NCBI RefSeq assembly: GCF_003334785.1
Contig: NZ_QOWV01000007.1
DNA: 64,000 nucleotides
DNA from: Escherichia coli
GTDB taxonomy: Bacteria > Pseudomonadota > Gammaproteobacteria > Enterobacterales > Enterobacteriaceae
Direction: 5' to 3' (one strand)
Numbering within the stretch: the stretch's first letter is position 1; every line of letters begins with the position of its first letter. The position numbers and the translations under genes are program-made. This document shows positions 34,689-42,266 of this stretch, piece by piece. The notes under the pieces were generated by a model that saw only the letters and a program-made list of their open reading frames with translations, made no database searches and was not told the DNA's origin.

Positions 34689-35057
34689 TTTATTTATATT
34701 GCGAATATAAATATTTTCTGAAAATCATATCTCATCTCTTTCCTTAATTACGATTTTAGTTTAAACATCTCTTTGCGGAAATAATATAACTTCCTATAAA
34801 TAAATATCAATCCCATCTCCATACCCTAACCAATTGCACTTGTGAACTTATTTTTACTTAATTTTGAATTAAGTAAATTTAATTTGTTCAAAAGCTTCTA
34901 AAGTGCACAATAGGCGACCTAATGAACAATGGTTGTAAATTTGGGTAACAAATATCATTGCTCATTAATATCTAACATTTGTTTCTCCTATTTGTGTCAT
35001 GAATAGTCATTCTTCAAACATGTAGTCTGACTAATGGAATTTTATTAAAGGATTTTT
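34689..35057 (+). promoter_or_regulatory. AT-rich upstream/promoter region of the yad fimbrial operon (likely nucleoid-protein silenced)
   Basis: 369 bp, very AT-rich with A/T tracts and short palindromes (atttatatt-gcg-aatataaat directly after the folK stop). Confidence 0.5.
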
Positions 35058-35642
35058 ATGTCTAAAAAATTAGGTTTTGCCCTGTCTGGTCTTATGCTGG
35101 CGATGGTTGCAGGTACTGCTTCTGCTGATATGGACGGCGGTCAGTTAAATATCAGTGGTCTGGTTGTTGATAACACCTGTGAAACCCGCGTTGACGGCGG
35201 TAACAAGGATGGTCTGATCCTGCTGCAAACCGCAACCGTTGGTGAAATCGATGCTGGCGTACTGAATGACACCGTTGGCGCTAAAGCTAAACCTTTCAGC
35301 ATCACCGTTGACTGCAGCAAAGCAAATCCGAATCCAGGTAGCACGGCTAAAATGACCTTCGGTTCTGTTTTCTTTGGTAACAGCAAAGGGACTTTGAACA
35401 ACGACATGTCTATTAACAACCCATCTGACGGCGTTAATATCGCTCTACACAATATTGATGGTTCCACTATCAAACAGGTTCAAATTAACAACCCTGGCGA
35501 TGTGTATACTAAAGCCCTGGATGCAACGACAAAATCTGCTGTTTATGATTTTAAAGCGTCTTACGTTCGTGCCGTCGCAGACCAAACAGCAACTGCTGGT
35601 TATGTAAAAACTAACACTGCATACACCATTACTTATCAGTAA
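35058..35642 (+). CDS. yadN: Fimbrial major subunit-like protein
   Basis: 194-aa ORF with signal peptide and type 1 pilin fold signature (C...C pair, C-terminal YTITYQ beta-strand). Confidence 0.92.
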
Positions 35643-35739
35643 GTATTCACCAGTTAAATTGATTGAATGAATATACAGGGAATAATAATTTCTATTTTAT
35701 ATTATTCCCTGTTTTAATTAACTCTATCAGGGATGGTTT

Positions 35740-36480
35740 ATGTTTTTTAACACCAAACATACAACAGCTTTATGCTTCGTAACCTGTATGGCTTTTAGTT
35801 CATCGTCTATTGCGGACATTGTCATTTCGGGTACTCGCGTAATATATAAAAGCGATCAAAAAAGTGTCAACGTACGTCTGGAAAATAAAGGGAATAACCC
35901 GTTGCTTGTCCAGAGTTGGTTAGATACTGGCGATGACAACGCTGAGCCTGGCAGTATTACAGTCCCTTTTACTGCTACGCCGCCAGTATCGCGTATTGAT
36001 GCCAAACGTGGGCAAACAATCAAATTAATGTACACAGCCAGCACCTCACTGCCTAAAGACAGAGAGAGCGTGTTCTGGTTTAACGTACTGGAAGTTCCAC
36101 CAAAACCAGATGCAGAAAAGGTCGCGAATCAAAGCCTGCTGCAACTGGCATTTCGCACACGTATAAAACTTTTCTATCGCCCGGATGGATTGAAGGGAAA
36201 TCCCTCTGAAGCCCCGTTAGCCCTGAAGTGGTTCTGGTCAGGTTCAGAAGGTAAGGCGTCATTACGAGTGACCAATCCAACCCCTTACTACGTCTCTTTT
36301 AGCAGTGGTGATTTAGAAGCTAGCGGTAAACGCTATCCGATTGATGTGAAAATGATTGCACCATTTAGTGATGAGGTCATGAAAGTCAATGGCCTTAATG
36401 GCAAAGCGAATTCTGCAAAAGTGCATTTTTACGCCATTAATGACTTTGGTGGCGCAATTGAAGGTAATGCCAGGCTGTAA
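35740..36480 (+). CDS. ecpD: Periplasmic fimbrial chaperone (PapD-like)
   Basis: 246-aa ORF with signal peptide and PapD-like motifs (TRVIY, LVQSW, NPTPYY); also called yadV. Confidence 0.92.
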   Translation: MFFNTKHTTALCFVTCMAFSSSSIADIVISGTRVIYKSDQKSVNVRLENKGNNPLLVQSWLDTGDDNAEPGSITVPFTATPPVSRIDAKRGQTIKLMYTASTSLPKDRESVFWFNVLEVPPKPDAEKVANQSLLQLAFRTRIKLFYRPDGLKGNPSEAPLALKWFWSGSEGKASLRVTNPTPYYVSFSSGDLEASGKRYPIDVKMIAPFSDEVMKVNGLNGKANSAKVHFYAINDFGGAIEGNARL

Positions 36481-36514
36481 TCAGGCAAGGATATAATTCC
36501 GCAGGAAGCATAGC

Positions 36515-40341: not shown

Positions 40342-40938
40342 ATGCATCCCACTCAACGTAAGCTGATGAAGAGAATAATTCTGTTTCTGTCATTACTGTT
40401 TTGCATCGCCTGTCCAGCCATTGCTGGACAGGATATTGACCTTGTTGCCAATGTAAAAAACAGCACCTGCAAAAGCGGAATCAGTAACCAGGGTAATATT
40501 GATCTTGGCGTCGTTGGGGTGGGATATTTTTCAGGTAATGTTACTCCTGAAAGTTATCAACCAGGTGGAAAAGAGTTCACTATCACTGTATCCGACTGTG
40601 CATTACAGGGAACTGGCGATGTGCTAAATCAGTTACATATTGATTTTAGAGCCCTTAGCGGTGTCATGGCTGCTGGCTCTAGGCAAATATTTGCTAATGA
40701 AATTTCGTCAGGAGCAAGTAATGTAGGAGTAGTTATATTTTCTACTCAGGATTCGGCGAATACATTCAATGTTCTTAATGCTTCAGGCGGATCTCGTTCC
40801 GTTTATCCAGTAATGTCGGATGACATGAATGGTTCATCCTGGAAATTTAGCACCCGAATGCAAAAAATCGATCCTGCATTGAGTGTTACATCTGGTCAAC
40901 TTATGAGCCATGTGTTAGTGGATATTTACTACGAATAA
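40342..40938 (+). CDS. yadK: Fimbrial subunit-like protein
   Basis: 198-aa ORF with signal peptide and pilin-like Cys pair. Confidence 0.9.
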   Translation: MHPTQRKLMKRIILFLSLLFCIACPAIAGQDIDLVANVKNSTCKSGISNQGNIDLGVVGVGYFSGNVTPESYQPGGKEFTITVSDCALQGTGDVLNQLHIDFRALSGVMAAGSRQIFANEISSGASNVGVVIFSTQDSANTFNVLNASGGSRSVYPVMSDDMNGSSWKFSTRMQKIDPALSVTSGQLMSHVLVDIYYE

Positions 40939-40987
40939 CAAACAAAAACAGCGCAAACCATAACAATAAAGAAACATTGGAGTAAAA

Positions 40988-42226
40988 ATGAAGACTATCT
41001 TCAGGTACATTCTTTTTTTAGCACTGTATTCTTGTTGTAATACAGTCAGTGCATATACAAGTTTTATTGTGGGAAATAATGCAGGAGTTGATAACTATCG
41101 AGGCCCCTCCACTGCCGCACAGATGACCTTTAATTACACATCAACAGCAAGCAACTTGGTTTTTTATAAACCCACGCAGCTCGGCCCGACTGGGGTAAAA
41201 ATGTACTGGTCATACCTGGATACAGGTACCGGTGGTGGTATTCTTTACTGCAATACATCTGGCAGAGCGAATCCTGGTCCAATAACTATTGAAAATGCCA
41301 TGGTCTATTCAGGTAAAGATTATGGCGGACATAAACTATTTAATACATCTGTTCCTGGTCTGTATTACACCATGTTAATATCAAGGGTCTGGTCTGCATA
41401 CGATACAATAACTGACATTCAATCGCCAGGAATCTATATCGGAGATCCTTCCAACCAAGAATTTTTCTTTTCCGTCACAGACAGCGATCTACAAACTAAG
41501 GGTTGCAACAAAGCAGACGACTACGATAAGTTTTGGGCTATTGGTGGTATAGTACACAACATAACTGTTGAATTTTATACAGATACTAATTTCGATCCTA
41601 CACTTAATCAGCAAGTCCAGTTATCCAGTTCATCAAATTACCTTTATTCGTTTAAGGCCTACAGTCCTGGTACAAAAGTTGTAGATCACAGCAACCACAT
41701 TTATGTCAATTTCACACTGAATAATGTCAAATTAACCTTACCAACATGTTTTACCTCCATACTTACCGGGCCATCAGTCAATGGTTCAACGGTTAGAATG
41801 GGAGAATATAGCTCTGGGACAATTAAAAATGGCGCTTCACCTGTTCCCTTTGATATCTCGCTTCAGAATTGTATTCGTGTGCGTAATATTGAAACAAAAC
41901 TCGTCACTGGAAAAGTAGGTACTCAAAACACACAACTGCTTGGTAATACGCTTACTGGAAGCACTGCCGCCAAAGGCGTTGGCGTACTCATTGAAGGTTT
42001 AGCAACCAGTAAAAATCCGCTAATGACATTAAAACCTAATGATACGAATTCTGTTTATATAGATTATGAAACCGAAGATGACACCTCCGATGGGGTTTAC
42101 CCTAATCAAGGTAACGGCACATCACAGCCTCTTCATTTCCAGGCAACATTAAAGCAAGACGGGAATATTGCTATCGAACCCGGCGAATTTAAAGCCACCA
42201 GTACTTTCCAGGTAACCTATCCCTGA
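40988..42226 (+). CDS. yadC: Fimbrial tip adhesin-like protein (two-domain)
   Basis: 412-aa ORF with signal peptide; N-terminal lectin-like domain plus C-terminal pilin domain (FQVTYP). Confidence 0.9.
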
Positions 42227-42230
42227 TAAC

Positions 42231-42266
42231 GTAGCAGCACTGTCACCTTCTGGCAGTGCTGCTACG
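42231..42266 (+). terminator. Strong stem-loop after yadC (putative operon terminator/stabiliser)
   Basis: 12-bp perfect inverted repeat gtagcagcactg / cagtgctgctac with an 11-nt loop; no clear T-run. Confidence 0.45.

Follow-up and report, generated by a model that had tools for sequence, protein, structure and literature searches.

The locus between folK and panB in the window, the term used here for the whole 64-kb stretch of DNA analysed, is with high confidence the yad chaperone-usher fimbrial operon of E. coli K-12, silenced by H-NS through the AT-rich region upstream of its first gene. The gene content, protein families, base composition and hairpins were observed here. Published work already covers the operon and its cryptic state, the binding of H-NS and the effect of its removal, the ligands of the adhesin and the role of the operon in bloodstream infection, and the main finding adds nothing new in this respect. 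What is new is descriptive, namely two hairpins, the boundaries of the variable cassette that holds the operon, and a conserved upstream dyad. The case also serves as a positive control, a reader of the raw sequence having correctly recognised an H-NS-silenced adhesin operon.

Gene content and protein families of the yad locus

Positions 34200-42400 of the window are 100% identical to E. coli K-12 MG1655, in which RefSeq names give the order folK, a 369-bp gap, yadN, yadV (ecpD), htrE, yadM, yadL, yadK, yadC and panB. The list of open reading frames (ORFs) places seven ORFs between folK and panB, all on the same strand, and family models resolve them into a chaperone, an usher and five pilin-type subunits, with the adhesin carrying a C-terminal pilin domain. 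NCBIfam matches were judged against curated cut-offs, which are exceeded by the chaperone, the usher, YadL, YadK and YadC. The earlier note had named the same seven genes as a complete chaperone-usher set, and all of its assignments agree with the RefSeq annotation and the family models. The coordinates of the genes and of the other features of the locus are summarized in Table 1.

Table 1. Features of the yad locus, with positions in the 64-kb window.
Feature	Position	Strand	Description
Last ~19 codons of folK	34631..34688	+	Left edge of the allele-variable cassette, from a 9-allele E. coli alignment
yadN regulatory region	34689..35057	+	369 bp, AT-rich, GC 26.6%; published promoter island and H-NS binding region
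Perfect palindrome	34691..34713	.	TATTTATATT-GCG-AATATAAATA, just 3' of the folK stop codon
Perfect dyad	34853..34877	.	TTTACTTAA-TTTTGAA-TTAAGTAAA; candidate operator of a dimeric regulator
yadN	35058..35642	+	Major pilin, 194 aa; RefSeq annotation; best family StaA, 122 bits
Stem-loop	35675..35720	+	13-bp stem, then UUUUAAUU; between yadN and yadV; terminator- or attenuator-like
yadV (ecpD)	35740..36480	+	PapD-like periplasmic chaperone, 246 aa; NF007398, 472 bits (cut-off 285)
htrE	36515..39112	+	Outer-membrane usher, 865 aa, GTG start; NF007337, 1701 bits (cut-off 830); RefSeq
yadM	39129..39698	+	Minor pilin, 189 aa from the RefSeq start
yadL	39710..40315	+	Minor pilin, 201 aa; NF011795, 448 bits (cut-off 392)
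yadK	40342..40938	+	Minor pilin, 198 aa; NF011794, 311 bits (cut-off 132)
yadC	40988..42226	+	Tip adhesin, 412 aa; NF007268, 885 bits (above cut-off)
GC-rich hairpin after yadC	42230..42266	+	16-bp, lacking a U tract; marks the right end of the variable cassette

The match of HtrE to its family model is full length (residues 3-865 of 865), and the protein also scores 449 bits against the FimD model. YadV matches PDB entry 5GHU, 'Probable fimbrial chaperone YadV', at E = 5e-148, and the PapD and FimC structures at E of about 1e-27. The five pilin-type proteins (YadN, YadM, YadL, YadK and YadC) share hydrophobic N-termini, a pair of cysteines about 41-45 residues apart and C-termini with a penultimate tyrosine (YadN TYQ, YadM IYQ, YadL TYN, YadK YYE, YadC TYP). 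The N-terminus of YadN is signal-peptide-like and its cysteine pair is Cys41/Cys86. The longest ORF of yadM begins at 39087, within htrE, and its signal-peptide-like sequence begins at the RefSeq start, 39129.

The closest named models for three of the subunits come from the Salmonella sta system (StaA-StaG): StaA for YadN, StaD for YadM (148 bits) and StaE for YadL (174 bits), although the sta proteins are to be read as relatives and not as equivalents because all of these matches fall below the curated cut-offs. The Salmonella sta operon may occupy the same folK-panB slot. Yad fimbriae of K-12 and of extraintestinal pathogenic E. coli (ExPEC) share this locus, its seven genes and its flanks folK and panB. 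Type 1 (fim) and P (pap) pili resemble the yad system in their PapD/FimC-like chaperone, FimD-like usher and donor-strand-completed pilins, and in the two-domain tip adhesin that is predicted for yad; in contrast, the N-terminal region of YadC has no sequence match to either FimH or PapG.

The two-domain organisation claimed for YadC holds in part. Pfam family Fimbrial (PF00419) covers residues 265-411 only, which places the pilin domain, while the N-terminal region (about 240-250 aa) matched no Pfam family and no PDB sequence; against the solved structures, the YadC sequence likewise returned no match. This N-terminal half is the most allele-variable part of the protein, as also reported in PMC13245861, where a ColabFold model gives it a lectin fold. 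In the assembled system, YadV caps the pilin subunits in the periplasm and HtrE polymerises them at the outer membrane, with YadN as the major pilin, YadM, YadL and YadK as minor or adaptor pilins, and YadC as the tip adhesin, combining a predicted lectin region with the pilin domain. Functional fimbriae are obtained when the operon is placed under a constitutive promoter, as PMC5797941 cites from Korea et al. 2010, and YadN has been seen at the cell surface by ELISA and western blot (PMC13245861).

The AT-rich upstream region and silencing by H-NS

The gap between folK and yadN, which the earlier note described as 369 bp long and extremely AT-rich, is exactly of that length and is 73% AT, its GC content comparing with 51.3% for the 64-kb window. 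It is essentially the lowest-GC stretch of its size: only 15 of 63,632 overlapping 369-bp segments are as low or lower, all of them at the yad locus, and segments outside the operon average 52.6% GC (sd 4.0, minimum 40.4%). A GC scan of the operon against its flanks, proposed along with the silencing claim, gives 42.4% for the operon body versus about 53% for the flanks, and third-position GC (GC3) is 0.34-0.41 in the operon versus 0.52-0.62 in the flanking genes. The dinucleotide TpA is also enriched in the gap (frequency 0.111 versus 0.046 for the window). The A-tracts that had been cited as a further mark of this region do not hold up as a distinct signal and were rejected, because the number of A/T tracts of at least 4 nt (8) matches that expected from composition (8.6). 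A generic sigma-70 scan of the gap found no strong promoter on the forward strand, and the number of sites was not above that in shuffled sequences.

The statements on H-NS binding, derepression and fimbria function draw on published work. Promoter island 156927_379 corresponds to the yadN/folK intergenic region and is H-NS-bound according to all the ChIP studies compared (PMC3661553, Table 1); its K-12 coordinates, 156927-157305, convert to positions 34636-35014 of the window. It is one of 78 catalogued promoter islands, others of which lie upstream of sfmA, ecpR and leuO, and such islands combine a high AT content and a high density of promoter-like sites with H-NS binding and lie beside genes predicted to be foreign (PMC3661553). 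The data sets of Grainger, Kahramanoglou and Oshima (G, K and O in PMC5797941) all list yadN as an H-NS-associated gene, over-production of the H-NS antagonist SlyA increases yadN expression 2.4-fold, and the yad operon is not expressed in standard laboratory conditions (PMC5797941). In a study of CFT073 and EC958, which also cites H-NS ChIP-seq for CFT073, deletion of hns raised Pyad-lux activity by more than two orders of magnitude and increased all seven yad transcripts in both strains, an effect complemented in trans (PMC13245861). Both the cryptic state of the operon in K-12 and the H-NS-type silencing of the gap, each proposed in the earlier note, are borne out by these publications. Silencing is not absolute in every strain, since three transcription units driven by native promoters are reported for the locus in EHEC (PMC11287998).

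The published high-affinity H-NS nucleation motif TCGATAAATT (Lang et al.) was rejected as the basis of binding in the gap, where it has no match at up to 2 mismatches, against 1.46 expected in shuffles. This motif is an auxiliary feature that is not required of H-NS-silenced loci, and its absence from the gap means that H-NS binding there rests on general AT and TpA richness. In the reading favoured here with high confidence, the operon is read from the region 3' of folK, and H-NS coats both this region and the AT-rich operon body, keeping transcription off under laboratory conditions. Removal or antagonism of H-NS, by over-production of SlyA or by environmental or host cues, permits expression. 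Reported inducing cues are ArcA/anaerobiosis, low temperature and human serum, and the reported ligands of YadC are D-xylose and annexin A2 (PMC13245861); the view that the receptor and the inducing conditions are not well defined is partly outdated, because these ligands and cues are on record.

Allelic variation of the folK-panB cassette

The operon lies in a hypervariable cassette that extends from inside folK to the panB promoter. In the 9-allele alignment, identity is near-complete up to TTTCCTGATGG (at about 34630) and collapses beyond it, and a stretch common to all alleles begins again at about 42270, with the panB promoter-like sequence TTGCCC-16-TAAAAT at 42276-42303. Between K-12 and CFT073 or an STEC strain, FolK is 90-91% identical and PanB 96-98%, and the identity of the yad proteins among alleles ranges from 28% for the adhesin to 60% for the usher. 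The upstream region has a GC content of 23-32% in all 12 divergent alleles, with identity to K-12 falling to about 40%. Because a fimbrial operon occupies the slot in every E. coli allele retrieved, the 'foreign' cassette looks, as judged from sequence, old and multi-allelic and not like a recent insertion. The folK-panB slot may hold an old multi-allelic fimbrial cassette in which the alleles keep a low-GC silencer region, a terminator hairpin after the pilin gene and, mostly, a 19-bp dyad.

A conserved dyad upstream of yadN

The short palindromes mentioned in the earlier note are a genuine feature of the gap, which contains seven overlapping 8-mer inverted repeats, arising from two perfect palindromes, against 0.3 expected, a number reached in none of 500 dinucleotide shuffles. 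The palindrome that follows the folK stop codon is poorly kept in other alleles, which retain only its right arm GAATATAAATA and the adjoining TTCNGAAAA. The dyad at 34853-34877 has perfect 11-nt arms and is the sole match of its kind in the 64-kb window (0.01 expected). Its 19-bp core, ACTWAW-N7-WTWAGT, occurs between -191 and -223 relative to the start codon in 9 of the 12 divergent alleles, CFT073 among them, and with a variable spacer, despite surroundings that have diverged to 40-70% identity, and the CFT073-type allele carries a symmetric change in both arms (ACTAA...TTAGT). The core is absent from allele class L012 and carries a mismatch in two other alleles. The probability of finding it by chance is about 0.001-0.01 per allele, figures that are optimistic because the motif was defined after the alleles had been inspected.

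Such conservation suggests another reading of the control of yad, in which H-NS is a general lid only and the decisive control is exerted by a dedicated dimeric regulator that binds the dyad and counter-silences or represses on a specific cue, for example a serum factor. We consider this possible but rather unlikely. Induction of Pyad by serum persists in an hns mutant, through a regulator left unnamed in that study (PMC13245861), and the constancy of the dyad among alleles fits such a regulator; yet palindromes arise readily in AT-rich DNA, the L012 class and the two mismatched alleles depart from the pattern, and the dyad has no known binding protein. It is not known to fit any of the E. coli motifs of LexA, ArgR, PmrA/BasR, NarL or the MerR type, and it is assigned to no regulator. 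A scan of species genomes with TTACTTAA-N7-TTAAGTAA returned, among the matches listed, only chance ones in AT-rich unrelated genomes, and the two Enterobacterales matches inspected among those listed were not near fimbrial genes. Silencing by H-NS through the AT-rich region remains our preferred reading. That the dyad could be the operator of a regulator inducing yad in serum independently of H-NS, within a possibly old multi-allelic folK-panB cassette, is put forward as a doubtful and tentative suggestion, and it offers a small practical lead: a defined 25-bp candidate site for the serum-responsive yad regulator that a 2026 study left unnamed.

Two further explanations of the silent state are weighed against H-NS silencing. 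Phase-variable control of yad, through an invertible promoter of the fim type or Dam/Lrp methylation of the pap type, is given almost no weight, even though many chaperone-usher operons are phase variable and the gap contains a perfect 11-nt inverted repeat pair (34688-34698 and 34795-34805, 96 nt apart). Unlike fim and pap, yad has no invertible element, recombinase genes, GATC/Lrp switch or PapB/PapI regulators: GATC does not occur in the K-12 gap and occurs in only 1 of the 12 alleles, and no recombinase or PapB/PapI-like gene lies between folK and panB. Yad fimbriae are, moreover, stated not to be phase variable (PMC13245861). It is equally improbable that the locus is a decaying remnant, cryptic on its way to pseudogenes and not regulated, with an AT-rich gap produced by mutational drift, since its silence in the laboratory and the IS1, ISKpn26 and IS3 insertions found in the locus or the upstream gap of several otherwise similar genomes are outweighed by seven intact frames with full-length family matches in K-12, the presence in 3913 of 5426 complete genomes of a match to 80% or more of the 8.2-kb query, a seven-gene operon in the same slot of each divergent allele retrieved at full length, the working fimbriae obtained from a constitutive promoter and the attenuation of ExPEC in mice upon yad deletion (PMC13245861).

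Hairpins within and after the operon

Two hairpins accompany the operon, and the roles given to them here are inferred. The hairpin between yadN and yadV has a folding z-score of -3.4, and none of 200 shuffles is as stable. In fim and pap, too, a stem-loop is known after the major subunit gene. The layout after yadN, a hairpin and then a U-run, recurs with unrelated stem sequences in the deeply divergent alleles L007, L008 and L012, while the stem of CFT073, CAGGGAAUAA...UUAUUCCCUG, closely resembles that of K-12 and leads into UUUU. This hairpin probably favours transcript ends after yadN, so that more transcripts would end after the major pilin gene than continue into the assembly genes. An assignment of the hairpin to an Rfam miRNA family was rejected (22.6 bits versus a gathering score of 93); this sub-threshold match is the only one in an Rfam scan of positions 34000-43000 at E <= 1, and the region therefore holds no known RNA family.

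The GC-rich hairpin after yadC, whose last nucleotide coincides with the end coordinate given for the operon in the earlier note (42266), has folding z-scores of -6.0 and -5.9, again with none of 200 shuffles as stable. Its probable role is to terminate or stabilise the transcript of the operon and to insulate panB. In the STEC-type and CFT073 alleles, another GC-rich stem takes this position after yadC.

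Gene content and protein families of the yad locus

The plus strand between 34209 and 43134 encodes nine genes, comprising folK, seven open reading frames and panB, and the window runs as the reverse complement of the orientation usual for K-12. Across the 8.2-kb segment 34200-42400, the sequence matches that of E. coli K-12 MG1655 at 100% identity. The chaperone, usher, pilin and adhesin assignments made in the earlier note are borne out by the MG1655 annotation together with NCBIfam models, which recognize YadV (472 bits, cut-off 285), HtrE (1701 bits, cut-off 830), YadL (448 bits), YadK (311 bits) and YadC (885 bits). 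YadN is similar to Salmonella StaA and YadM to Salmonella StaD, both with scores below the NCBIfam cut-offs, and YadV, a chaperone resembling PapD and FimC, matches the solved YadV structure 5GHU. All five pilin-type products combine a hydrophobic N-terminus, a conserved cysteine pair and a C-terminus with a penultimate tyrosine. In YadC, the sole Pfam domain is the Fimbrial domain at residues 265-411; sequence searches with the N-terminal ~250 residues gave no match to Pfam families or to solved structures. The longest yadM reading frame begins at 39087, within htrE, while the signal-peptide-like sequence of YadM begins at the RefSeq start, 39129. Further downstream, the pantothenate genes are split by rpnC, which is encoded on the opposite strand and separates panC from panD; in CFT073 a transposase fragment adjoins rpnC, and panC is annotated as frameshifted.

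Features of the yad locus and of related alleles (window positions unless a fetched locus, L, is named)
Feature	Position	Strand	Description
folK	34209-34688	+	
folK-yadN gap	34689-35057		
yadN			RefSeq (MG1655): fimbrial protein
yadV (ecpD)			RefSeq (MG1655): fimbrial chaperone
htrE			RefSeq (MG1655): Yad fimbria usher
yadM, yadL, yadK			RefSeq (MG1655): fimbrial or fimbrial-like proteins
yadC			RefSeq (MG1655): fimbrial tip-adhesin
panB	42340-43134	+	
rpnC (formerly yadD)	44071-44973	-	recombination-promoting nuclease
Inverted repeat pair	34688-34698, 34795-34805		ATTTATTTATA / TATAAATAAAT
Perfect palindrome	34691-34713		TATTTATATT-GCG-AATATAAATA
Perfect palindrome (dyad)	34853-34877		TTTACTTAA-TTTTGAA-TTAAGTAAA; core also in L003, L004, L005, L007, L008, L009, L010, L011 and L134 (CFT073)
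Hairpin 3' of yadN	35675-35720		13-bp stem-loop, then UUUUAAUU
Hairpin 3' of yadC	42230-42266		16-bp GC-rich stem
GC minimum beyond the yad locus (369-bp stretch)	11386-11754		near K-12 dgt-degP by coordinate conversion
Syntenic seven-gene chaperone-usher operon, folK-panB	L008 10413-17377		STEC 2010C-3142
Syntenic seven-gene chaperone-usher operon, folK-panB	L007 10472-18778		JNEC-KY204
Insertion-sequence sites	hits H1-H5, H16, H22; L007 12595-13823; L013 1383-2080		

H-NS silencing of the operon

The literature is explicit on H-NS at this locus. The reading of it as a cryptic operon under H-NS-type silencing is supported by published binding and derepression (PMC3661553, PMC5797941, PMC13245861) and is itself already in print. 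The yadN/folK gap is K-12 promoter island 156927_379, one of 78 such islands, marked as H-NS-bound by all ChIP studies compared (PMC3661553); its coordinates convert to window 34636-35014. The Grainger, Kahramanoglou and Oshima data sets are each tabulated as associating yadN with H-NS; the gene also overlaps a predicted genomic island, and SlyA over-production raises it 2.4-fold (PMC5797941). Korea et al. 2010, as summarized in PMC5797941, describe the operon as cryptic, repressed by H-NS and functional under constitutive drive. In the ExPEC strains CFT073 and EC958, hns deletion raises Pyad-lux activity more than 100-fold and increases all seven yad transcripts, YadN protein and surface fimbriae, and complementation with H-NS in trans brings repression back; serum further induces the promoter, also without H-NS (PMC13245861). 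Also reviewed there are the YadC ligands D-xylose and annexin A2 and, among cues, ArcA, anaerobiosis and low temperature; Yad is described as not being phase variable (PMC13245861). Both the observation, which is confirmed, and its interpretation are established knowledge on a named K-12 operon.

Allelic diversity between folK and panB

Among complete E. coli genomes, 5425 of 5426 match some part of the query 34200-42400, and at least 80% of it is covered in only 3913. Best-match identities form separate bands of 1448 records (at least 99%), 242 (95-99%), 1831 (90-95%), 1660 (80-90%) and 258 (60-80%). Every divergent allele fetched at full length carries a seven-gene fimbrial operon between folK and panB. 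Identity to K-12 in CFT073 and the STEC strain, respectively, is 86% and 40% for YadN, 85% and 61% for YadV, 87% and 60% for HtrE, and 62% and 28% (pilin domain only) for YadC; FolK is 90-91% and PanB 96-98% identical in these comparisons. The variable block, a hypervariable cassette, begins inside folK, near 34631, ~19 codons upstream of the stop; since these last codons (34631-34688) diverge with the cassette, the left recombination boundary lies inside folK. The right edge falls near 42270, just past the yadC hairpin, where shared panB promoter-like sequence resumes.

Allelic diversity, chiefly in the YadC lectin region, has been described, and phylogroups D and E were scored largely Yad-negative at a threshold of 80% usher identity and length (PMC13245861). 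Genomes of the STEC 2010C-3142 and JNEC-KY204 types match only the first ~90 query bases, the conserved part of folK, and carry a syntenic, deeply diverged operon. They would score Yad-negative because their usher is 60% identical, below that threshold.

In genomes that are otherwise almost the same, IS1A/IS1B, ISKpn26 and IS3-family elements repeatedly break the operon or the gap between folK and yadN. At L013, a fetched locus, IS1 directly follows folK and a fimbrial-like protein gene comes immediately after it, replacing the usual upstream gap.

Composition of the upstream gap

The gap measures exactly 369 bp and has a GC content of 26.6% against 51.3% for the window. Equally low or lower values occur in 15 of 63,632 overlapping 369-bp windows, every one at the yad gap, and elsewhere in the window, beyond the operon, no value falls below 40.4%. 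GC content is 42.4% in the operon body, with a GC3 of 0.34-0.41 versus 0.52-0.62 in pcnB, folK, panB and panC; TpA steps in the gap reach 2.4 times the window frequency. Of the features earlier ascribed to this region, AT-richness and short palindromes hold, while A-tracts do not stand out: 8 A/T tracts are present and 8.6 are predicted from composition. The inverted-repeat excess, due to two perfect palindromes, was reached by 0 of 500 dinucleotide shuffles. Within the gap there is no near match to the published H-NS nucleation motif, no GATC and no match to known RNA families. The gap also holds an 11-nt perfect inverted repeat pair, 96 nt apart, which is probably a by-product of composition, since no recombinase gene lies nearby.

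A conserved dyad as a candidate operator

Upstream GC remains at 23-32% in 12 of 12 alleles, despite identity to K-12 down to ~40%. Although these alleles are highly divergent, nine of the 12 share the 19-bp dyad core ACTWAW-N7-WTWAGT, at -191 to -223 relative to the major-pilin start codon. Among the nine are the CFT073 allele, on which the published reporter is built, and the STEC type, which can barely be aligned; a single mismatch is present in two others, and the dyad is missing from one allele class. The spacer varies among alleles; in the CFT073 type, the two arms have changed symmetrically. The dyad is unique within the 64-kb window, and a scan of species genomes was swamped by chance matches. 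The chance expectation is ~0.001-0.01 per allele for a motif defined after the sequences were seen. This sequence conservation suggests a candidate operator for a dimeric regulator, and nothing more; that a yad regulator acts there we consider rather unlikely. The dyad is the sole forward-looking item, a testable candidate site for such a regulator.

Hairpins following yadN and yadC

The hairpin directly 3' of yadN, which a U run follows, is unusually stable (z = -3.4; 0 of 200 shuffles as stable). CFT073 carries a closely similar one, and deeply divergent alleles place a hairpin and U run of unrelated stem sequence at the same site. In other pilus operons, partial termination or transcript stabilization favors the major pilin; by analogy, either effect is predicted for the yadN hairpin. 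The hairpin 3' of yadC (z ~ -6) lacks a U tract, and its last position is the end coordinate given in the earlier note; a GC-rich stem also follows yadC in CFT073 and in the STEC type, in each case a different one. Across allele classes, both hairpins keep their position, with stem sequences that differ between the deeply divergent classes.
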